DNA of 64,000 nt from Candidatus Aldehydirespiratoraceae bacterium (GTDB taxonomy: Bacteria; Actinomycetota; Acidimicrobiia; Acidimicrobiales; Aldehydirespiratoraceae). The notes beneath the pieces are model-generated. The model was not told the origin of the DNA, searched no databases, and worked only from the letters and a program-made list of their open reading frames with translations. Of this stretch, positions 4,686-56,685 are shown in pieces. Each line of letters opens with the position of its first letter. Positions within the stretch are counted from its first letter, which is position 1. The translations under genes were made by a program, and so were the position numbers. The stretch spans positions 1,159,096-1,223,095 of the forward strand of contig OZ240616.1 of assembly GCA_965198315.1 (NCBI GenBank). Direction: 5' to 3'.

Positions 4686-4711
4686 CGAAGGCCCGCCTCG
4701 GCGGGCCTTCG
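4686..4711. terminator. GC-rich hairpin (11-bp stem, 4-nt loop) immediately downstream of the NYN gene; T-run follows on the plus strand
   Basis: CGAAGGCCCGC-CTCG-GCGGGCCTTCG followed by AGGTTTT on the plus strand. Lies 6 nt past the stop of the minus-strand gene 4717..5385. Confidence 0.55.
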
Positions 4712-4716
4712 AGGTT

Positions 4717-5385
4717 TTACCAGTCCTTAGGCTTGTGAATCGGTCCGTTGGGACCATCCACGACGACCGGCAACAGCGTCTCTTGGAGCAACTGGCGTGG
4801 GACCTGCTTATAGAAGGAGCAGTTGAGGCTCAGGAGCTTGCGCGATCGCGTCTTGCGCGCCTGAGGGTTGATGATCCCCACCTTGACTCCGAGTTCTGAT
4901 TGCGTGATCTGGATGGCTTGGGCCAGATCTGAGTCGTTGCTGATCACGATGGCTGTGTCGCAATGGCGTTTGAACGCGTCGAACAGCAGGTACGTGGCTA
5001 GGTTGACATCCGAACCTTTTTCCTCGGTCCTGAGCACCTCGACTGTCCGCGACTCTCCGGGTCGCCGGTTTGCACGCTGCATTCGAACAGGTTTGGTTAG
5101 GAAGTGCCCGTAGTGGATCTCTACGAGGGGCAATGTGGCGAGAGCCTGCAGGTATGCGTCTTGGCGGTTGGCTTGTTGAGGATCATCTGGGCGGGCGCTG
5201 ATCCGTGCCGTGAAGTACCGAATCTTCAAGATCTGATCGCGTGGGAACAAACGTTGGCATAGAGCTTCGAGATTGAGCCATTTGTTGCGCGTTCCCTTGA
5301 CGACACCGTAGTAGAAGTTGAACCCATCGATGTAGACGATCGTCTGCGGTCGATTCGTGCTCGTGTCCAAGGAATGAACCGTCAT
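4717..5385 (-). CDS. NYN (LabA-like, PIN-fold) domain protein, putative RNase
   Basis: ORF track 222 aa. IVYIDGFNFYYG, EEKGSDVNLA and AIVISNDSDLAQAI match the NYN acidic-residue motifs. Composition is visibly less GC-rich than the flanks. Confidence 0.75.
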   Translation of the reverse strand: MTVHSLDTSTNRPQTIVYIDGFNFYYGVVKGTRNKWLNLEALCQRLFPRDQILKIRYFTARISARPDDPQQANRQDAYLQALATLPLVEIHYGHFLTKPVRMQRANRRPGESRTVEVLRTEEKGSDVNLATYLLFDAFKRHCDTAIVISNDSDLAQAIQITQSELGVKVGIINPQARKTRSRKLLSLNCSFYKQVPRQLLQETLLPVVVDGPNGPIHKPKDW

Positions 5386-5549
5386 CGTCTGAGGCTAACG
5401 TTCTCATGGCCCACCGGTGGAAACCGCTTGAGGGGGACCGGGTTGGCCCTCATAGGTGGTCGTTCACTACGGTCGCGAGAACGCGCATCATCCAGAACAG
5501 GTGGCCTAGCGCGGCTGCTCTCTAGCGGAGAACGTTCCGTTCGACTGGC

Positions 5550-6563
5550 TTATGACCGAGAGGCCAGACTGGCGACAACGGGGGAGAACGAGGTGATGGT
5601 TTCGGCTAGGCCCTCCGCGGCGGTGCGGCGGGCAGTGGCCGCAAGGTTGAGGCTGACGCTGGTGAAACCCATGTCGAGCACAGCTTCAAGCTGCTGCGCG
5701 CACTCGTCGGGAGTGCCGACGATGGTGAAAGCCTCCACCAGACGGTTGTCGATGAGCTCGTCGAGGGCAGCGTCGTCGGTTCGGTTGTGGTCGAAGTACC
5801 AACCCTGGCTGCGCTCCAGAGCAGCCTCGACAGCGGTCATGCGATCGGGGTCCACGTCCAGTTCAGCGGGGCGAATCAGGGTGAGGTAGTGAGCGACATA
5901 GCGTTTGACGCTGCGTCTGGCCAGATCGCCGTCAACAGAGCAGCACAGGGTCAGGCGGGGGGCCACCTCCAAGTCCTCGAGCGTGCGCCCCACACGTCCA
6001 GCCCCCTCGGCCAGCCAAGATCGGTATTGCGTGGCCAGACCCGCGGAGAGATAACGCCCCCCGACCAAGGCGATGTCGGCCACTTCTCCGGCCAAGCGCA
6101 TCACTTGAGGGCTGCGCGTGCCGATGGAGATCGGTATCGGATGCGTTGGCGGACGGATCAGGCGCTCACCGCCCACTTCCCCGCCGTCCAACAACGTGCG
6201 GATCTCGGTCACGGCTCGGCGTAGCGCGGCAACCGGCTTCGGGTAGTCGATCCCCAATGGCTCCAAACCGGCCCCCACACCCAGCCCGCAGAACGCCCGA
6301 CCGCCAGCAAGGTCGTCGAGCGTTGCGAGCGCTCCGGCCAACACGACTGGGTGACGTGTGTAGGGGTTGGTGACCATGGCCCCCACCGCGATGCGGCGGG
6401 TGGCCTGAGCGCAGAGCGCTTGGACCATGAACGAGTCGGGCCAGAACACCACATCGGAGATACCCAGCCTGGCGAAACCGGCTTCTTCGGCGAGTTGAGC
6501 CAACCGCACCGCAGCCGCGGTGTCCATCCCTGGGCTGATCTCTGCTTCGAGGACGACGCTCAT
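5550..6563 (-). CDS. LLM-class (luciferase-like) flavin/F420-dependent oxidoreductase
   Basis: ORF track 337 aa. GFARLGISDVV, NPYTRHPVVLA, GRAFCGLGVGAG and VGTPDECAQQL are typical of luciferase-like monooxygenase family proteins. Confidence 0.75.
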   Translation of the reverse strand: MSVVLEAEISPGMDTAAAVRLAQLAEEAGFARLGISDVVFWPDSFMVQALCAQATRRIAVGAMVTNPYTRHPVVLAGALATLDDLAGGRAFCGLGVGAGLEPLGIDYPKPVAALRRAVTEIRTLLDGGEVGGERLIRPPTHPIPISIGTRSPQVMRLAGEVADIALVGGRYLSAGLATQYRSWLAEGAGRVGRTLEDLEVAPRLTLCCSVDGDLARRSVKRYVAHYLTLIRPAELDVDPDRMTAVEAALERSQGWYFDHNRTDDAALDELIDNRLVEAFTIVGTPDECAQQLEAVLDMGFTSVSLNLAATARRTAAEGLAETITSFSPVVASLASRS

Positions 6564-48551: not shown

Positions 48552-49294
48552 CAGTGAAGCTGCTTCATCTGGTCTAGAACCAGCTCGGCGGTCGGGTCGA
48601 GAAGTTCGTCGACGACCTTGCCGTCGGCCAGGAAGATCACCCGGTCTGCGAAGGCGGCGGCCAACGGATCGTGGGTGACCATGACAATGGTCTGGCCCAG
48701 ATTGTCGACTGCATCCCGCATGAACTGCAGAATCTCGTTTCCGGATGTGGAGTCCAGGTTGCCGGTGGGTTCGTCCGCGAAAATAATCTCGGGGCGGCTG
48801 GCCAGGGCGCGGCTCACTGCCACTCGCTGCTGCTGTCCACCGGACAGTTCGCTCGGAAGATGGCTCATCCGGTCGGCCAAGCCAACGGTGTTTATGACAT
48901 GGTCAAGCCATGCCTCGTCGGGGTCGCTCCCAGCGAGGTCCATGGGCAGAGTGATGTTCTCGAGCGCGGAGAGGGTCGGCACAAGATTGAAGGCTTGAAA
49001 AACGAACCCGACTTTGTCGCGGCGCAGCAGGGTCAGATCCCGTTCGCTCAAAGTCGACAGGTCGGTAGCGCCGATGTAGACCTGCCCACCGCTCAGCGTG
49101 TCGAGCCCCGCGAGGCAGTGCATGAGCGTGGATTTGCCCGAACCCGACGGGCCCATGATGGCGGTGAAGCGGCCCTGCTCGAAGTAGGCGTCGATGCCAT
49201 CGAGGGCTCGAACTTCGGTGTCGCCTTCGCCATAGATCTTGGTGGCTTCAACGGCGAGGGCCGCGGTGTTGACAGAATCGGGTGCATCGCTCAT
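48551..49294 (-). CDS. ABC transporter ATP-binding protein (MacB/LolD-like)
   Basis: 247 aa. [36 protein letters not shown]. 1-nt overlap with the permease start. Confidence 0.9.
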
Positions 49295-49456
49295 GAAAGC
49301 TCCGGTTCACTAGGGAGAGGATTCGCAAAGCTCCAAACGAGGCTATCGCTGCGCGTACTCCGAACTACTTGAGTTTGTGCGAGTTTCGGCGCGGAACGTG
49401 ACAGAGTGGTGCGATTCTGTGGGACTGGAATTGGATTGGACAATGAAGGAGCCGAA

Positions 49457-51067
49457 ATGCGCCCGGTGAAGATCGCCACATGGTCAGAGGTACCCGATCG
49501 CGAACCGGTTGGGGCGCTTGTCGACGGGGTCGACCTGGTTGTCGTTCGCTTCGACGACAACCACTCGGTGCTGTACGGGCGTTGCCTGCACCGCGGTGCG
49601 CTGATGGCTGACGGTCGAGTCAGCGGAGACAACCTCATCTGCGGACTCCACGGTTGGGACTATGTCTTTCATACCGGCGTGTCGAGCTACGACAATGCCG
49701 AGCGGCTCGCCAAGTTCGCGTCGTGGGTGGAGGGCGATGATCTGCTCGTTGATCTCGACGAGATCCAGGCGTGGACCAAGGAACATCCTCAACCCTTCGA
49801 CCGGGACGCCTACCAGGGCGCATTTCAAGATCCGCACGGAGACCCGGCCGAGCCACATGTCGGGTTGATAAGACGATTGGCCAACGAGGGGTTGGACTAT
49901 CTCGGTCACCACGGACCGGTCGTCTCGATGGGTGTCGAGCGGAACCTGCTGCCGAAATGGGACGACATCCAGTTCGTGACGGCGCAGTTGGCGCGCAAAC
50001 CCCAGCTCGACCATGTGGAGGTGGGCACCGAGGTGGTCATCGGTCCCAACGCCGCTGAACCGCTGCGCCTCGACATCCCGATGTTCGTAAGCGACATGAG
50101 CTTCGGGGCGCTCTCGGAGGAAGCGAAGGTGGCGCTCGCCCGTGGCGCAGAGATGGCAGGAACCGGGATCTGTTCGGGAGAGGGCGGGATGCTGCCCACC
50201 GAGAAGGCAGAGAATTCACGGTATTTCTACGAGCTGGCGAGCGGAAAGTTCGGTTGGTCGATCGACAAGGTCGCCGACGTGCAGGCCTTTCACTTCAAAC
50301 TCGGCCAGGGGGCCAAGACCGGGACCGGAGGACATCTGCCGGGCATCAAAGTCCAGGGCAAGATCGCCGAGGTGCGGGGCCTGGTGCCAGGCACCGACGC
50401 GATCTCCCCGTCCACGTTCGTCGAGTTCGACTGCGAAGACGACTACCGGCGCTTCGCCGACCAGGTCAGGGAGGTCTCCGGCGGCGTGCCGATCGGGGTG
50501 AAGATGTCGGCTCAACACATCGAGGACGACATCGACGCAGCGCTGCGGATCGGAGTCGACTACATAATCCTCGATGGCCGCGGCGGGGGCACCGGTGCTG
50601 CACCCGTGGTCTTCCGCGACCATATTTCGGTGCCGACGATCCCGGCGCTGGCACGGGCACGGCGCCACCTCGACTCCCGTGGTCGGCGCGACGTCACCCT
50701 GGTCGTCACCGGTGGGCTCAGAACCCACACAGACTTCGCCAAGGCTCTTGCGCTCGGCGCTGACGCGGTGGCAGTGTCGAACTCGGCCATGCAGGCGATC
50801 GGCTGTATCGGTATGCGTGCCTGCTCCACCAACAACTGCCCGGTGGGGATAGCCACCCAGAAACCGGAACTGCGGGCGCGCCTGCCAGTTCAGGAAGCAG
50901 CGCTTCGGCTTGAACGGTTCTTTGCTGCCAGCACCGAACTGATGGGTGTCCTGGCACGGGCCTGCGGGCACACCCATCTGCGCGAGTTCTGCACCGACGA
51001 TCTCACAACCTTCGACTCGAACATGGCCCAACTCACCGGAATCGCTTACGGAGGAGTAGCAAAGTGA
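49457..51067 (+). CDS. Rieske [2Fe-2S] domain fused to glutamate-synthase-related FMN/Fe-S domain protein
   Basis: ORF 49406..51067. ATG 49457 follows AAGGAG. Rieske C43-L-H45...C62-G-L-H65. GltS FMN-domain motifs FKLGQGAKTGTGGHLPG, ILDGRGGGTGAAP, CSTNNCPVGIATQ. Confidence 0.8.
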   Translation: MRPVKIATWSEVPDREPVGALVDGVDLVVVRFDDNHSVLYGRCLHRGALMADGRVSGDNLICGLHGWDYVFHTGVSSYDNAERLAKFASWVEGDDLLVDLDEIQAWTKEHPQPFDRDAYQGAFQDPHGDPAEPHVGLIRRLANEGLDYLGHHGPVVSMGVERNLLPKWDDIQFVTAQLARKPQLDHVEVGTEVVIGPNAAEPLRLDIPMFVSDMSFGALSEEAKVALARGAEMAGTGICSGEGGMLPTEKAENSRYFYELASGKFGWSIDKVADVQAFHFKLGQGAKTGTGGHLPGIKVQGKIAEVRGLVPGTDAISPSTFVEFDCEDDYRRFADQVREVSGGVPIGVKMSAQHIEDDIDAALRIGVDYIILDGRGGGTGAAPVVFRDHISVPTIPALARARRHLDSRGRRDVTLVVTGGLRTHTDFAKALALGADAVAVSNSAMQAIGCIGMRACSTNNCPVGIATQKPELRARLPVQEAALRLERFFAASTELMGVLARACGHTHLREFCTDDLTTFDSNMAQLTGIAYGGVAK

Positions 51068-53088
51068 ACGACCCGATCGCCGAGCAGCCATCTGTCTCCG
51101 AACCGGCACTGCCTGAAGAGGAGTACTCCTGGCATCGCCTCCTGGGCCTTGACGAATTACCGCAAGGCCGAGTCTCAACTGTCACCATCGACCATGAGAG
51201 CCTCTGCGTGACCCACACGTCCGAGGGCGGCTACGGCTGTCTGGCCAATGCCTGCCCGCATCAGGCCGGCCCGCTCGGCGAAGGGTCCATCGAGGGCGGA
51301 TGGCTCCGCTGTCCTTGGCACGGCTACGATTATTCGCCCAAGAACGGAATACCGCCGGGGTCCTTCTCTGACGCACCACCAGCCTTTCGGACTGAGGTTC
51401 GCGACGACGGGGTGTATGTCGCCCTGCCCCATCAGATGGCGCGGCCCCGAACCGTTTCTGACGTGATGGTCGAAACGATGGTCAACTGGGGCGTGACCCA
51501 TGTCTTCGGCATGGTCGGACACTCCAATCTCGGTTTCGCGGATGCTCTGCGCGCGGCTGAGGAACGTGGCGATCTTTCCTTCATCGGTATCCGTCATGAG
51601 GGTGCTGCCTCATTCGCGGCTACTGCCTACGGCAAGCTCACCGGCAAGCTTGCCGGTTGTTTCGCGATCGCGGGTCCAGGCTCGACGAACCTCATGACCG
51701 GGCTCTACGACGCCAAGACGGACCGCGCCCCGGTGCTCGCGGTCTGCGGTCAGGTTCCCAGCAAAGTCCGTGGTCGCGGCGCTTTTCAAGACACCGACCT
51801 CTCCGCCGCGTTCGCCGATGTAGCCCGCTACTCCCAGACAGTGCAGGCCACATCCGACCACGGTGAGCTGATGACTCTGGCGTGCAAGACGGCGTTGGTG
51901 GAGCGTGACGTGGCTCATCTGGTGCTGCCCGACGAAGTCCAGGTGCTTGCGGCCGGCGACAACGCCCGCGTGGGTTCCCCCAAGGGTCGCAGCGGAGATC
52001 GCCAGATCGGGCCTCCCGCAGAGTCGCTGAGCGCTGCGATCGAGGCGATTTCGGCTGCTGATCGGCCCCTGGTCATCATCGGCAACGGTGCCCGCGCCGG
52101 AATCATCGACATCGTCGCCTTCGCTGAGGCCATTGATGCACCGGTCGCCACCACCTTCAAAGCGAAGGGTCTGATCTCAGATCAGCATCGCTTGGCGGCG
52201 GGAGTGCTGGGTCGCTCCGGCACTCCTGTGGCGAGCTGGTTCATGAACGAGTCCGACATGATCGTGGCGTTCGGGGTGTCGTTCGCGAATCACACCGGAA
52301 TCGCCGATTACAAGCCGATCGTGCAGGTTGATTTCGATCCGATGGCTCTTGGCCGTTTCCATCCTGTCGCGGTTCCTGTTCAGGGCCATGTCGGGGTTGT
52401 CGCCAAAGCGCTGCTTGAGGGGCTTGAAGGGCTTGCCGGTGAAGGGGTGACCCGCCGTGGCGCCGCTGATGAAATTGCGCAGCGTTGGGCCATCTGGCGC
52501 AGCGAGAAAGCCAGCCGACGCCAGGACGATCATGGTGCAGGGATCAACGCCGCGGCTCTGTTCGATGCGCTCAGTGCTTGTGTCCCGGCGAACGCCATCA
52601 TGCCGGTCGATGTCGGCAACAACACCTACTCCTTCGGCCGCTACTTCGAAGTGCAGCAACAGACCGTGTTGATGTCGGGTTACCTCGGGTCGATCGGCTT
52701 CTCGTTGCCGGCCGCGATGGGCTGCTGGGCTGCCACGCAGAGCCAACCGGAGTACGCTGACCGCCCGGTCGTGTCTGTTTCTGGCGACGGAGGTTTCGGT
52801 CAGTACGCCATGGAGATGACCACTGCCGTCAAGTACGGCATGAACATCACCCACGTGCTGATGAACAACAGCGAGTTGGGCAAGATCTCCAAAGAACAGC
52901 GAGCGGCCGACTTCGACGTCTGGCAGACATCCCTGCACAACCCGGAGTTCGCCGCCTTTGCTGAACTGTGTGGAGCCAAGGGTATTCGTGCCACCGAGAT
53001 CGAGCAGTTGCCCTTCGCGATAGCTGAAGCCATCGCTCACCGGGGCCCCGCCCTAGTCGAAGTCATCACCGACGCGCTGCTTGTCTGA
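51064..53088 (+). CDS. Rieske [2Fe-2S] domain fused to thiamine-diphosphate enzyme (POX/ALS-like)
   Basis: ORF track 674 aa. GTGA overlap with the upstream stop. Rieske C64-P-H66...C83-P-W-H86. TPP N-terminal domain VFGMVGHSNLGF, IRHEGAA. TPP-binding GDGGFGQYAMEMTTAVKYGMNITHVLMNN. Confidence 0.8.
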   Translation: MNDPIAEQPSVSEPALPEEEYSWHRLLGLDELPQGRVSTVTIDHESLCVTHTSEGGYGCLANACPHQAGPLGEGSIEGGWLRCPWHGYDYSPKNGIPPGSFSDAPPAFRTEVRDDGVYVALPHQMARPRTVSDVMVETMVNWGVTHVFGMVGHSNLGFADALRAAEERGDLSFIGIRHEGAASFAATAYGKLTGKLAGCFAIAGPGSTNLMTGLYDAKTDRAPVLAVCGQVPSKVRGRGAFQDTDLSAAFADVARYSQTVQATSDHGELMTLACKTALVERDVAHLVLPDEVQVLAAGDNARVGSPKGRSGDRQIGPPAESLSAAIEAISAADRPLVIIGNGARAGIIDIVAFAEAIDAPVATTFKAKGLISDQHRLAAGVLGRSGTPVASWFMNESDMIVAFGVSFANHTGIADYKPIVQVDFDPMALGRFHPVAVPVQGHVGVVAKALLEGLEGLAGEGVTRRGAADEIAQRWAIWRSEKASRRQDDHGAGINAAALFDALSACVPANAIMPVDVGNNTYSFGRYFEVQQQTVLMSGYLGSIGFSLPAAMGCWAATQSQPEYADRPVVSVSGDGGFGQYAMEMTTAVKYGMNITHVLMNNSELGKISKEQRAADFDVWQTSLHNPEFAAFAELCGAKGIRATEIEQLPFAIAEAIAHRGPALVEVITDALLV

Positions 53089-53133
53089 ACGCCTCGGTGG
53101 TCTGCTGTCGAATCCAGTTATAGTGCGGCCTCA

Positions 53134-54063
53134 ATGAGCATCATCACGACGAGCGGCCTGACGATGCAGTTCGGGGCACAGCGTGCCCTCGACTCGCTCG
53201 ATGTTGATGTACAGAGCGGCGTGACCGGCCTAGTGGGCGCCAACGGCGCAGGCAAGACCACACTGATGAGCCTGGTGCTGGGTCTGCGGGTGCCGACCGC
53301 AGGGCAGGCATGGGTGCTCGGGCACGATCCGCAGACCAACGGTGCGCAACTGCGTGCGCAGATCGGTTACGGGCCGGAGCGCAACGTCGTGCCCGAGGAC
53401 ATGCCCGCCTCGGACTTTGTGAAGCACATGGCTGAAGTACGAGGGATGCCCCGCAGCGAAGCCAGAGGCCGCGCCTCAGACGCCCTGTGGCTCGTCGGTC
53501 TGGGAGAGGAGCGCGCCCGGGCGCTGGGAACCATGTCCACCGGTCAACGCCAGCGGGTGAAGCTCGCCCAGGCCATCGCCTCGGATCCCGCTCTGCTGCT
53601 GTTGGACGAACCGACCGACGGCCTGGACCCGGTACAGCGCGATGAGATGCTCACACTGATCCGCCAGGTCAGCCGTGAATACGGAATCGATGTGGTGCTC
53701 TCATCGCACCTGCTCGAAGAGGTCGAACGGATCTGTGACCACATCGTGGCCCTCGACGCCGGCCAACTGGTCGCTCAGGGGCGGCTCACCGATCTCATCG
53801 GGGACGAACTGGGCGTGGTGGTCGAACTCGCAGAGATCGCAGACCAGCCCCATGCTTTCGACGACGTCGTGAACCAACTGTCGCAGTCCGGCCTCGAGGT
53901 CCGCCACGGCGAGGTGGAATCCCGCATGGAAGTAATCGGACCCGACGCTGATCTGGTCGCGGACCTGGTGCGTGACGCGGTCGCCGATGCAAACGCCAGA
54001 GTCGTCCGCATTGAACGTCGCCGGCGCCGCCTCGAAGACCTCTTCTCGTTGGGGACGTCATGA
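53134..54063 (+). CDS. ABC transporter ATP-binding protein (ABC-2 exporter type)
   Basis: 309 aa. GANGAGKTT, MSTGQRQRVKLAQA, LLLDEPTDGLD. Confidence 0.88.
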   Translation: MSIITTSGLTMQFGAQRALDSLDVDVQSGVTGLVGANGAGKTTLMSLVLGLRVPTAGQAWVLGHDPQTNGAQLRAQIGYGPERNVVPEDMPASDFVKHMAEVRGMPRSEARGRASDALWLVGLGEERARALGTMSTGQRQRVKLAQAIASDPALLLLDEPTDGLDPVQRDEMLTLIRQVSREYGIDVVLSSHLLEEVERICDHIVALDAGQLVAQGRLTDLIGDELGVVVELAEIADQPHAFDDVVNQLSQSGLEVRHGEVESRMEVIGPDADLVADLVRDAVADANARVVRIERRRRRLEDLFSLGTS

Positions 54064-54956
54064 ACGGCAACGCAAAGTCGAGTTCGGACGGCACCGAGAT
54101 CTACGACCGGGGCTACCGCAAGTACGAGGGTGCCCGATCCGGTGTGGCCGGGGCAGTCCGTTCGTTGACTTGGCAGACGATTCGCAGCATCTTGGGCTTG
54201 GGTCGCCCCGCCCGTCACAAGGTCTTCCCGGTGATCATGGTGGTGATTGCGGTTGTGCCGGCTGTGGTCTTCGTGGGCTTCGCCGTACTGGCCCGTGATC
54301 TGGGACCGCCAGCCAACTATTCGGATCTGTTCGCTTACTCGGTTACTGCGATTCTGGTATTTACGGCGATGGTGGCTCCCGAGGCTCTGGTTCGCGACCG
54401 CCGCGACGGCATGTTCTCGTTGTACCTGTCGACACCACTGACTCGGGGTTCGTATGTGGGTGCCAAGGTCTTGGCTGTGCTGGCAGTGATGATGATCATC
54501 GCGCTCGGGCCGGTGCTGGTCGCCTTGCTGGGATACACAGTGGTGGGTCTCGGACCCGATGGAGCTGTGGAATGGTTCGGAGTATTCTTGAAATTGACTG
54601 CGGGCAGCTTGGTGATATCGGTTATCATGGCGGCGGTTTCAATGGCGGGTTCCAGCGTCACCGATCGCCGGGCTTTCGCGAGTGCCACAGTTGTTCTGGT
54701 GCTCTTGGGCGGGGCGATCGTCAGTGACGTCCTTGTAAACACAGCAGAGTACTCAGACGCATACGGACTTCTTGATCCTCTGGGCACGGCGGGTCATATG
54801 GCGACTCGGATCCTCGGGGAAACCCTCCCGGAAGGCCAGTCGGCGTCGGGGTTGTCGGAGGTTGACACGGGAGTGTTGGCTCTCGGTGCTGCGGCTTGGT
54901 TCGCTGCCGGTGCTGGCATTGTGGGCTACAAGTACCGAAACCTCGAGGCGACCTGA
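54060..54956 (+). CDS. ABC-2 type permease
   Basis: 298 aa. Six hydrophobic segments. ATGA overlap with the upstream ATPase. Confidence 0.7.
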   Translation: MNGNAKSSSDGTEIYDRGYRKYEGARSGVAGAVRSLTWQTIRSILGLGRPARHKVFPVIMVVIAVVPAVVFVGFAVLARDLGPPANYSDLFAYSVTAILVFTAMVAPEALVRDRRDGMFSLYLSTPLTRGSYVGAKVLAVLAVMMIIALGPVLVALLGYTVVGLGPDGAVEWFGVFLKLTAGSLVISVIMAAVSMAGSSVTDRRAFASATVVLVLLGGAIVSDVLVNTAEYSDAYGLLDPLGTAGHMATRILGETLPEGQSASGLSEVDTGVLALGAAAWFAAGAGIVGYKYRNLEAT

Positions 54957-55939
54957 TGGCTGTTTCTGAGTCTTCACCGGCCCCGCCTCCGGCCCCACCG
55001 CCGCCACCAAATCCGGCGACGGCGAGGCCGATCGTCGACGTGCAGAACGTCACCAAGGCATTCGGTGACGTGGTCGCCGTTTCCGACGTCAGTTTCACGG
55101 TGGGACCGGGTGTGACCTCTCTGCTCGGACCGAACGGAGCTGGCAAGTCAACGCTGTTTCGCATCCTGTGCGGCCTCACGCCTCCGTCGCGGGGCACCGT
55201 GAGGGTGCTCGGTGAGAATGCTCGCGAACATCGCAACGTGCGCGGCCGCATTGGACTCGCACCGCAACAAGATGCTCTTTGGGACCGTTTCTCGGCCTTT
55301 GAGTTCGTAGAACTAGCAGGCAAGACCCACGGAGTTCCCGACCCATCGGGCCAAACCCTCCAGAGTTTGGCATATGTCGATCTGGATCCCGAAGACCCCA
55401 AACGGATAGGTGCCTACTCCAAGGGGATGAGGCAGCGAGTGAAGCTGGCCGCAGCGCTGGTCAACGACCCGGACCTGTTGATCCTCGATGAACCGCTCAC
55501 TGGCCTTGATCCGGTTCAGCGCAACCGCATGATCAGCCTTTTTCATGACCTCGGCAACAGCGGCAAGTGCCTGCTGGTTTCGAGCCATGTGCTCGACGAG
55601 GTCGCACGGATCGGTTCCAGAGTGCTTGTGATCGCGCAGGGGCGACTGGTTGCGTCCGGGGACTACCGGCGTCTGCGGGAACTGATGGACGACCGCCCCC
55701 ATCGCATCAGGGTGCAGTCGGACGACTCTCGCAGGCTCGCCTCCGAGCTCATCGGACGCGGCCTGGTCGACGGGGCCTCTGTGCGGGAGAACACCGTGCT
55801 GATCGACACGCTCGACGTAGACCAGTTCGGTCGGAACATCGCTGCGATGTCGGCTGAACTCGGAATCCGACTCCGAGAGTTGGTCCCTACAGACGACGAC
55901 CTCGAATCCGTCTTCAGGTACCTGGTCGAGCGGCGATGA
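54956..55939 (+). CDS. ABC transporter ATP-binding protein with Pro-rich N-terminus
   Basis: ORF 54896..55939. ATG 54956 overlaps the upstream stop (TGATG). SPAPPPAPPPPPNP leader. GPNGAGKST, YSKGMRQRVKLAAA, LILDEPLTGLD. Confidence 0.85.
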   Translation: MAVSESSPAPPPAPPPPPNPATARPIVDVQNVTKAFGDVVAVSDVSFTVGPGVTSLLGPNGAGKSTLFRILCGLTPPSRGTVRVLGENAREHRNVRGRIGLAPQQDALWDRFSAFEFVELAGKTHGVPDPSGQTLQSLAYVDLDPEDPKRIGAYSKGMRQRVKLAAALVNDPDLLILDEPLTGLDPVQRNRMISLFHDLGNSGKCLLVSSHVLDEVARIGSRVLVIAQGRLVASGDYRRLRELMDDRPHRIRVQSDDSRRLASELIGRGLVDGASVRENTVLIDTLDVDQFGRNIAAMSAELGIRLRELVPTDDDLESVFRYLVERR

Positions 55940-56685
55940 ACAGCTACGTCTCTGCTCCGCGGGCCGTCGTGATCACGCATCGTCTGCTTGTCCGTCAGTT
56001 GCTCTCGAAGGGACGAGTCGTGGCCCTTCTCGGCGTCGGGGTCATCATCTCGTTGGTTGTGGCGCTGGTCTCACGCACCGTCGGCGACGACGAGCTGGCC
56101 TACGAAGCTCTCGAACTCGGCACCGCGTTGATGGCCAATCTGGGCTTCACGATTGTGGTTCCGATCGTGGCTCTGGTGTTCGCGGCAGCGGCATTCGGCG
56201 ACCTCAAAGAGGACGGCACACTGGTTTATTTGTGGTTGCGTCCGATGGACCGTTGGCCGATAGTCGTCGGAGCCTGGCTCGCCTCGGTCACCGTCAGCCT
56301 GCCTTTGACTCTCGTTCCCTTGACGGTGGCGGCCTTCATCGCCAATGTCGGGTCTGATTTGGTATGGGCCACGGTTTTGGCCTGTGTGGTGGGCAACCTC
56401 GCCTACTCCGCGGTGTTCATGCTGCTTGGCCTGCTGATCAAGAACTCCGTCGTGTGGGGTATCGGGTACATCCTCATATGGGAGGGCTTGGTGGCGGGAC
56501 TCGGCAGTGTGGGCGAGAGGCTCGCCATCCGCGGTTACACCCGGTCGATCATGGCCGAGCAGACAGGCGTCGACCTGTATCTCGGCAACCTTTCGTCGAC
56601 TACCGCTGTTGTTGTGCTGACACTCGCGGTGCTCGTTGCGTTTGTGCTGTCCAGCCTGCGTTTGCGGACAATGGACGTCGCCTAA
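55936..56685 (+). CDS. ABC-2 type permease
   Basis: 249 aa multi-TM protein. ATGA overlap with the upstream ATPase. Confidence 0.7.
   Translation: MNSYVSAPRAVVITHRLLVRQLLSKGRVVALLGVGVIISLVVALVSRTVGDDELAYEALELGTALMANLGFTIVVPIVALVFAAAAFGDLKEDGTLVYLWLRPMDRWPIVVGAWLASVTVSLPLTLVPLTVAAFIANVGSDLVWATVLACVVGNLAYSAVFMLLGLLIKNSVVWGIGYILIWEGLVAGLGSVGERLAIRGYTRSIMAEQTGVDLYLGNLSSTTAVVVLTLAVLVAFVLSSLRLRTMDVA

Follow-up and report, generated by a model that had tools for sequence, protein, structure and literature searches.

Textbook redox enzymes are classified by their electron partners, with NADPH or ferredoxin serving the glutamate synthases (GltS) and quinone or O2 serving the pyruvate oxidases of the PoxB and POX type. 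Rieske [2Fe-2S] ferredoxins, for their part, donate to another Rieske centre in the oxygenase systems to which they belong. Here we describe two overlapping genes from Candidatus Aldehydirespiratoraceae bacterium (Actinomycetota, Acidimicrobiia), found in a 64,000-nucleotide stretch of contig OZ240616.1 (assembly GCA_965198315.1, positions 1,159,096 to 1,223,095), hereafter called the window. Gene 1 joins a Rieske domain to a GltS-type flavin mononucleotide (FMN) barrel, and gene 2 joins another Rieske domain to a PoxB/POX-like thiamine diphosphate (ThDP) enzyme. Both textbook cores here bear a built-in Rieske carrier, and the genes co-occur across many phyla. We read them as a conserved, separable redox pair in which gene 2 may oxidize a 2-oxo acid and pass the electrons from Rieske to Rieske to gene 1, an interpretation that we find credible while stopping a little short of calling it probable.

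The two overlapping open reading frames (ORFs) proposed in the first-pass annotation of this DNA were both recovered in the ORF calls and their translations. Gene 1 encodes 536 amino acids from an ATG at 49457 with GAAGGAG just 5' of it, and gene 2 encodes 674 amino acids from a GTG at 51064 that overlaps the TGA of gene 1 (GTGA) and has GGAGGAG 8 nt upstream. The window has a G+C content of ~60%. The parts of the pair, in window coordinates, are:

49457..51067, + strand: gene 1, Rieske-GltS-like iron-sulfur flavoenzyme (ORF, Pfam, orthologues in many phyla at 63-97% identity)
49457..49786, + strand: gene 1 Rieske [2Fe-2S] domain, residues 1-110 (Pfam; ligands C43, H45, C62, H65)
49802..49933, + strand: gene 1 tether, residues 116-159, predicted to be flexible (AlphaFold2 confidence, pLDDT <50)
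50018..50968, + strand: gene 1 GltS-type FMN "synthase" barrel, residues 188-504 (Pfam, phmmer, Foldseek)
50804..50839, + strand: gene 1 C450-x5-C456-x4-C461, GltS-type [3Fe-4S] motif (alignment to solved GltS)
51050..51067, + strand: coupling signal, ribosome-binding site (RBS) GGAGGAG at 51050-51056 and GTGA overlap at 51064-51067 (sequence read directly)
51064..53088, + strand: gene 2, Rieske-PoxB/POX-like ThDP enzyme (ORF, Pfam, NCBIfam)
51127..51429, + strand: gene 2 Rieske [2Fe-2S] domain, residues 22-122 (Pfam; ligands C64, H66, C83, H86)
51451..53064, + strand: gene 2 ThDP core, with PYR domain 130-246, FAD-type middle domain 323-450 and PP domain 516-667 (Pfam, phmmer, Foldseek)

In gene 1, Pfam recognizes a Rieske domain at residues 4-75 (E = 4e-12) and a Glu_synthase domain (PF01645) at residues 188-504 (E = 6e-91), which bears out the fusion proposed earlier. 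The Rieske motif C43-x-H45 ... C62-x-x-H65 is present, and the other motifs quoted for this protein, GQGAKTGTGGHLPG, DGRGGGTGAAP and CSTNNCPVGIATQ, were all found, the last of them inside C450-x5-C456-x4-C461. By phmmer, residues 212-499 match the solved GltS chains 7MFM (141 bits), 1EA0/2VDC (119 bits) and 1LLW/1OFD (114 bits), and the core keeps the GltS motifs QGAK, GGxLPG (with His for Gln) and GGTGAAP. C450, C456 and C461 align with the CxxxxxCxxxxCPVG segment of solved GltS chains and are invariant in gene 1 orthologues; from what is established for GltS, we take them to be ligands of a [3Fe-4S] cluster. The AlphaFold2 (AF2) model (pLDDT 75.5, pTM 0.65) combines a confident Rieske head, with block-mean pLDDT mostly at 78-95 and at 61-72 around the ligand loops, with a confident barrel in which the low-confidence loops are the cofactor loops. 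Between the two, pLDDT falls below 50 at residues 116-159, and the Rieske head is predicted to sit on a flexible tether of ~45 residues. Foldseek returns GltS structures first (7MFM and 1OFD, TMq 0.55), followed by alpha-hydroxy-acid FMN enzymes including flavocytochrome b2.

Set against GltS and its ferredoxin-dependent form (Fd-GltS), gene 1 shares the FMN TIM barrel and the motifs QGAK, GGxLPG, GGTGA(A/S)P and CX5CX4CPVG(I/V)ATQ, and the electrons of its [3Fe-4S]/FMN centres would, as in Fd-GltS, enter or exit through a [2Fe-2S] carrier. It differs from GltS in lacking the amidotransferase, central and GXGXG domains, and in bringing its own carrier, a Rieske domain fused through a predicted flexible tether. 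By Pfam, gene 1 has no Ntn (class II) amidotransferase domain (PF00310) and no GXGXG domain, and a Glu_syn_central match of 18.1 bits, which overlaps the barrel, lies under the 22.8-bit cut-off, so that no central domain is called. GGQLPG of GltS reads GGHLPG in gene 1 and SPPPHHDIYS reads SPSTFVEFDC; the substrate site was compared at the motif level. Flavocytochrome b2 (1FCB) offers a working analogy, since it too consists of an N-terminal one-electron carrier tethered to an FMN TIM barrel, but it has a haem b5 carrier, a barrel of another FMN family, no [3Fe-4S] cluster and alpha-hydroxy-acid chemistry. The same genome carries a canonical gltB, a 1573-codon frame at C1:2.51 Mb that bears the genome's single PF00310 match, and gene 1 is therefore no replacement for GOGAT. 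Two stand-alone GltS-barrel paralogues without a Rieske domain (G000:C1:604923-606086 and G000:C1:4141143-4142357, 43% and 39% identical to gene 1), both conserved in most genomes of the genus, further rule out that role.

In gene 2, Pfam places a Rieske domain at residues 22-95 (E = 1e-13) ahead of TPP_enzyme_N, M and C (E = 1e-28 to 1e-33), in agreement with the motif C64-P-H66 ... C83-P-W-H86 and the fusion to a three-domain ThDP enzyme read from the sequence at first pass. By phmmer, residues 129-669 match PoxB (3EYA/3EY9, 198 bits), L. plantarum POX (1POX, 195-196 bits) and C. glutamicum PQO (9EV3-6). Among the NCBIfam models the pyruvate oxidase PRK08611 scores best, with 374 bits where 742 are required, and every equivalog cut-off is missed. 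In the AF2 model (pLDDT 88.2, pTM 0.83) the Rieske domain is confidently docked, with a short linker to the PYR domain, and Foldseek aligns the model to PoxB/POX structures at TMt 0.80-0.91, with 4FEE and 3EYA (TMt 0.90) among the matches. Gene 2 has in common with PoxB, PQO and L. plantarum POX (1POX, 4FEE) the three-domain ThDP fold, the catalytic Glu (E179), the GDGG...NN motif and an FAD-type middle domain, and it is a ThDP enzyme of the PoxB/POX type, probably with FAD. E179, G574-D575-G576-G577 and N602 are invariant in gene 2 orthologues.

Compared with these enzymes, gene 2 adds the N-terminal Rieske domain, drops the membrane peptide of PoxB and has Lys607 in place of F465. The PoxB C-terminal membrane peptide has no counterpart in gene 2: the aligned part extends no further than position 527 of 572 in PoxB and 669 of 674 in gene 2. 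In POX and PoxB an aromatic residue (PoxB F465, LpPOX F479) sits between ThDP and FAD. The Lys607 that aligns with PoxB F465 (window 52882-52884) is invariant in 30 orthologues and lies within an invariant LGKISKEQ, which suggests a different electron path or chemistry. The gain of a Rieske domain, the absence of the membrane peptide, Lys607 and the missed equivalog cut-offs together indicate that the electron acceptor of gene 2 is probably a protein-bound cluster rather than quinone or O2.

The two Rieske domains are themselves informative. In bc1/b6f-type Rieske proteins a second Cys in each ligand box forms a disulfide, in the pattern C-T-H-L-G-C / C-P-C-H-G-S. The corresponding boxes here are CLHRGA / CGLHGW for gene 1 and CPHQAG / CPWHGY for gene 2, and the second Cys pair is found in neither. 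Both domains resemble soluble Rieske ferredoxins of the low-potential type: the best solved match of the gene 1 domain is the Rieske domain of NdmA, followed by T4moC, BphF and TodB, and the gene 2 domain matches T4moC and CarAc across their whole length. With T4moC (1VM9), CarAc (1VCK), BphF (1FQT) and TodB (3DQY) they share the CxH...CxxH ligands, a ~100-residue domain and the lack of a disulfide Cys pair. Whereas the oxygenase ferredoxins are free proteins, the domains here are fused to dehydrogenase/reductase cores with no oxygenase partner encoded nearby, and we infer that they act as one-electron ports and not as oxygenase parts. The question of whether the Rieske ligands are conserved in orthologues was settled in both families: all are invariant, in two sets of 27 and 24 gene 1 orthologues and in two sets of 12 and 30 gene 2 orthologues, each set spanning several phyla. 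At only 24% identity to each other, the two domains are not a recent duplicate, and the idea that a single Rieske domain was recently copied onto both genes is ruled out.

Relatives of gene 2 occur at no fewer than 574 loci in a species-level scan of 185,579 genomes, one per species, and the locus analyses that follow use the best 80 of these (58-94% identity, each covering the Rieske part). Their labels include Actinomycetota, Pseudomonadota (alpha and gamma), Myxococcota, Acidobacteriota, Gemmatimonadota, Cyanobacteriota, Planctomycetota, Deinococcota and Rhodothermota, although such phylum names are labels on contigs of metagenome-assembled genomes (MAGs), in which binning errors are possible. 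Sponge and bivalve symbionts, cyanobacteria and myxobacteria are among the carriers, and in metagenome proteins each fusion forms at least 120 clusters at >=70% identity. Of 251 evenly sampled Acidimicrobiia genomes, 33 carry gene 1 and 53 carry gene 2; these are widespread families and not rare exceptions. Both genes occur in 25 of the sampled genomes against ~7 expected (~3.5x chance, in counts that ignore shared ancestry) and are adjacent in 14 of the 25, while gene 1 stands alone in 8 genomes and gene 2 in 28. In five genomes with gene 2 but no adjoining gene 1, the latter lies 45-50 kb off in two and is missing in three.

A full-length gene 1 orthologue (58-97% identity) adjoins gene 2 in at least 35 of the 80 loci, from at least seven phyla, and this is a lower bound because several contigs end near gene 2. 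Gene 1 lies upstream on the same strand in 26 of the 35, downstream in 7 and divergently in 2, so that the gene neighbourhood recurs in three arrangements far beyond Actinomycetota. G026, from another family, has an identical 4-nt overlap (ORFs 4690-6366 and 6363-8363 of L013). Adjacency kept across so many phyla in three arrangements is hard to explain without a functional link, and it makes a purely regulatory neighbourhood less likely. The dedicated two-step module envisaged in the first-pass annotation stands in part: the genes co-occur well above chance and adjoin each other beyond Actinomycetota, but the pair is not obligate, since gene 2 is alone in 28 of its 53 carriers and gene 1 in 8 of its 33.

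On the gene 2 tree, Actinomycetota stand apart from the rest, with 11 label changes against a minimum of 8, and with so few changes the family looks old and mostly vertical. Recent horizontal spread is thus not supported as the source of the 60-70% identity seen across phyla. The state of adjacency changes at least 18 times on the same tree. Three loci labelled Gammaproteobacteria, Acidobacteria and Bifidobacteriaceae (L037, L039 and L052) nest within Acidimicrobiia clades, reflecting either binning errors or gene transfer. At two other loci (L042:4359-5953 and L058:4393-5995) the gene 1 match is in two pieces in different frames, as would be expected of a frameshifted pseudogene or an indel error in a long-read MAG.

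The core of gene 1 is not tied to one carrier. Gene 1 orthologues fall into one cluster at 50% clustering, and the closest relatives of the core, at 59-66% identity over residues ~120-534, have different N-termini. The domains found in place of, or in addition to, the Rieske domain in relatives of the core include:

P0244 and P0245, 62-66% identity to gene 1: two CDGSH [2Fe-2S] domains
P0246, 59% identity: Fer4_19 and CDGSH
P0261, 38% identity: CDGSH, Fer4_19 and Rieske
P0273, 44% identity: CCG and rubredoxin
P0299, 41% identity: GXGXG and 4Fe-4S dicluster

The occurrence of the same core with varied carrier modules indicates that the N-terminal domain is an exchangeable electron carrier, much as ferredoxin is for Fd-GltS, and the Rieske domain of gene 1 would be a swappable electron port on a general [3Fe-4S]/FMN chassis. 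The CDGSH form, too, has a wide distribution, and its carriers include Nitrosococcus, Alkalilimnicola, Nitrospira and methanotrophs such as Methylotuvimicrobium (loci L115-L118). No ThDP enzyme adjoins the CDGSH form in the three loci inspected, and in the loci examined the Rieske-ThDP enzyme adjoined only the Rieske version of the core.

A natural deletion series within the genus of the window shows how the two genes behave when separated. The surroundings of the pair are:

49295..49456, no strand: intergenic region from the divergent MacB-type ATPase gene to gene 1, likely the promoter and 5' leader (inferred) of the gene 1/gene 2/ABC-2 unit
53134..56685, + strand: four ABC-2 genes (ATPase, permease, ATPase, permease; Pfam), probably on the same transcript as the pair

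The ABC-2 set begins 46 nt 3' of gene 2 on the same strand, with no terminator-like site in the gap, and the earlier statement that no transporter is co-encoded was wrong. A consensus scan of the gene 1 upstream region found no sigma-70-like promoter. All 18 genomes of the genus keep the frame formed by the macB ATPase, the four ABC-2 genes and echA, and 12 of them carry gene 1 and gene 2 within it. In the remainder (loci L009, L010, L011, L107, L108 and L109), gene 1 alone or both genes have been lost. The interval ~49430-51048 is deleted in G009 and ~49491-51048 in G005, and in both of these the final ~15 nt of gene 1, which hold the RBS of gene 2, are retained; gene 1 is also absent from G008. 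What survives between the two deletions of G007 (49418-51010 and 51166-53059) is the terminal 57 nt of gene 1 together with the initial 102 nt of gene 2, a single deletion (49362-53118) removes both genes in G010, and G004 retains only a piece of gene 2 (51904-52256, 70% identity) and the gene 2 end. The breakpoints differ, which implies that gene 1 or both genes were lost independently at least three, and probably five, times.

No genome of the genus has gene 1 without gene 2. Where gene 2 is intact, its pairwise dN/dS is 0.06-0.09, equal with and without gene 1, and purifying selection persists. In G009, G005, G007 and G010 at least 49234-49361 of the upstream region is retained and is fused just 5' of the next surviving start codon, which fits a single promoter for the whole set of six genes. 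Where gene 1 or both genes have been deleted, the ABC-2 genes survive at 57-90% identity, and among the 80 loci they adjoin gene 2 only in close Acidimicrobiales relatives. That they outlast the pair, and that their adjacency is limited to close relatives, argues that they have no functional dependence on it, and the deletion series rules out that the pair is functionally linked with either the ABC-2 exporter or the divergent MacB pair.

One further gene recurs in these neighbourhoods. At 23 of the 80 loci (e.g. L044:7963-8970, L046:4043-5017 and L094:9260-10120) it is the immediate neighbour of gene 2 or gene 1. In 8 of them it is DUF5996 (PF19459); the other 15 belong to an unannotated family of 240-335 amino acids that has a C-terminal motif in common with DUF5996 (pairwise E = 7e-5). 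Gene 1 is missing from 12 of the 23, so that this third gene tracks gene 2. The window's own genome has a DUF5996-type copy at G000:C1:3581528-3582418 (L098), 2.4 Mb away and with uninformative neighbours, and literature searches on DUF5996 and on the name of the bacterium's family returned nothing relevant. No other conserved third partner was found among the recurrent neighbours in the 80 loci. In G026, an ECF-type sigma factor gene directly follows gene 2 (L013:8412-9074). The surroundings of gene 1 are heterogeneous in genomes that have gene 1 only; a zinc-type alcohol dehydrogenase gene adjoins it in G021 (L012:7309-8417, split in two ORFs) and G044 (L112:4398-5636), both of which lack a gene 2 orthologue.

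Both proteins are predicted to be cytoplasmic iron-sulfur flavoenzymes, and we propose a scheme for their bound cofactors, their substrates, a direct protein-protein contact and the direction of electron flow. Gene 2 would most likely oxidize and decarboxylate a 2-oxo acid, placing the electrons on its own Rieske cluster. From there they could pass to the tethered Rieske cluster of gene 1, then to the [3Fe-4S] cluster and on to FMN, where they would power a reduction like that of GltS, with a 2-oxoglutarate-like substrate and either free ammonia or an amine. The pair would then amount to an amino-acid synthase driven by 2-oxo acids and independent of NAD(P)H and ferredoxin. In genomes without gene 1, the electrons of gene 2 would go to other acceptors. 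Such a role as donor to several clients would account for gene 2 being the commoner and more persistent of the two, and for gene 1 being lost first in the genus. The scheme has parallels in oxygenase systems, with their order of reductase, Rieske ferredoxin and Rieske acceptor, and in Fd-GltS, which depends on ferredoxin, and the placement of the heads in the AF2 models, tethered in gene 1 and docked in gene 2, fits it and counts in its favour. A more ambitious form of the idea is that the pair represents a new kind of wiring between enzymes, with a PoxB-like "reductase plus Rieske ferredoxin" feeding a minimal GltS barrel and gene 2 serving other Rieske-type clients elsewhere; this we put forward tentatively, as possible and on balance doubtful.

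Several observations weigh against Rieske-to-Rieske transfer from gene 2 to gene 1. Outflow from [3Fe-4S] to Rieske, or from FMN to a carrier, would be equally compatible with the architecture, which leaves the direction unconstrained; arsenite oxidase is a precedent for [3Fe-4S]-to-Rieske outflow, and flavocytochrome b2, a Foldseek neighbour of gene 1, for outflow from FMN to a carrier. Neither gene needs the other, as 28 of the 53 genomes with gene 2 and 8 of the 33 with gene 1 do without the partner, and the co-occurrence statistics ignore shared ancestry. With a canonical gltB in the genome, an extra glutamate synthase is not obviously needed. Lys607 for PoxB F465 and GGHLPG for GGQLPG mean that the chemistry of both cores may differ from that of the textbook enzymes.

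The main rival to this scheme is a sequential catabolic route, the idea raised at first pass, in which gene 1 oxidizes an amino acid or amine such as glutamate, gene 2 decarboxylates the 2-oxo acid oxidatively, and both Rieske domains export electrons to a common third acceptor. Both cores can run oxidatively in known relatives, the arsenite oxidase precedent applies, and the tethered carrier and FMN barrel of gene 1 reproduce the layout of flavocytochrome b2, one of its Foldseek neighbours. A lone gene 2 would still be useful on 2-oxo acids from elsewhere, which fits the genomes that have gene 2 only, and the DUF5996 or DUF5996-like neighbour in 23 of the 80 loci could belong to the acceptor system. 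Against this, the 80 loci show no cytochrome, reductase or oxygenase acceptor conserved beside the pair, the two proteins are cytoplasmic and have no membrane anchor, and nothing points to a substrate chain that they share. GltS-type barrels are moreover known as reductive aminating enzymes, and the reduced FMN of GltS reacts poorly with oxygen (PMC8097209), which also counts against an oxidative role. We judge this route a serious contender that is nonetheless rather unlikely. More unlikely still is that the two enzymes exchange no electrons and are independent, being neighbours through common regulation (an iron, redox or stress signal) or through history. Each gene often occurs without the other, adjacency has changed at least 18 times on the gene 2 tree, gene 2 is unaffected when gene 1 is lost, the two Rieske domains are 24% identical, and an ECF sigma factor gene directly follows the pair in G026, all of which favour this reading. 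Independence does not readily explain adjacency across at least seven phyla in three arrangements with 4-nt overlaps in distant families, co-occurrence at ~3.5 times chance, or the observation that, in the loci examined, the Rieske version of the gene 1 core, and none of the three CDGSH versions inspected, adjoins the Rieske-ThDP enzyme.

Two further readings are very improbable. The six co-oriented genes could form one unit that makes or modifies a compound and exports it, in line with their common strand, the 46-nt gap without a terminator-like site and the deletions that leave the upstream region fused to the next gene, suggesting one transcript. The deletion series largely refutes such a functional unit, since the ABC-2 genes are intact in G005, G008 and G009, which have lost gene 1, and in G004, G007 and G010, which have lost both genes; outside close Acidimicrobiales relatives they are also absent beside the pair. 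Slightly less probable again is that gene 1 belongs to a split glutamate synthase, or to N-methylglutamate synthase as its subunit MgsC. A PF01645 domain that stands by itself is also found in MgsC and in archaeal GltS, and one JGI homologue is named "methylamine-glutamate N-methyltransferase subunit C". Gene 1 scores 143 bits against the NCBIfam GltB model (NF008730), with a cut-off of 1047, and the genome's single class-II amidotransferase domain lies inside the canonical gltB. No amidotransferase (MgsA-like) or GXGXG (MgsB) gene lies beside gene 1 here or in the 80 loci, and in the absence of these partner subunits both assignments are ruled out.

A literature search found no paper on either fusion and no functional assignment, so that of the earlier concern that the fusions might be widespread and already assigned, only the first part applies. 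The source annotations are generic ("glutamate synthase-related protein", "thiamine pyrophosphate-binding protein" and "pyruvate oxidase"). What is new here is the deletion series, the finding that the pair and the ABC-2 genes are independent, the constancy of selection on gene 2 whether or not gene 1 is present, the two-by-two table of gene occurrence across the class and the carrier-swap series. The genus provides natural single and double "knock-outs" for comparison, and the CDGSH, rubredoxin and 4Fe-4S variants show the core of gene 1 to be a general chassis with exchangeable carriers. If the two enzymes do exchange electrons, the pair would represent an undescribed coupling of 2-oxo-acid oxidation to nitrogen assimilation or amino-acid turnover, and the Rieske-bearing gene 2 would add a new class of acceptor to the PoxB family.

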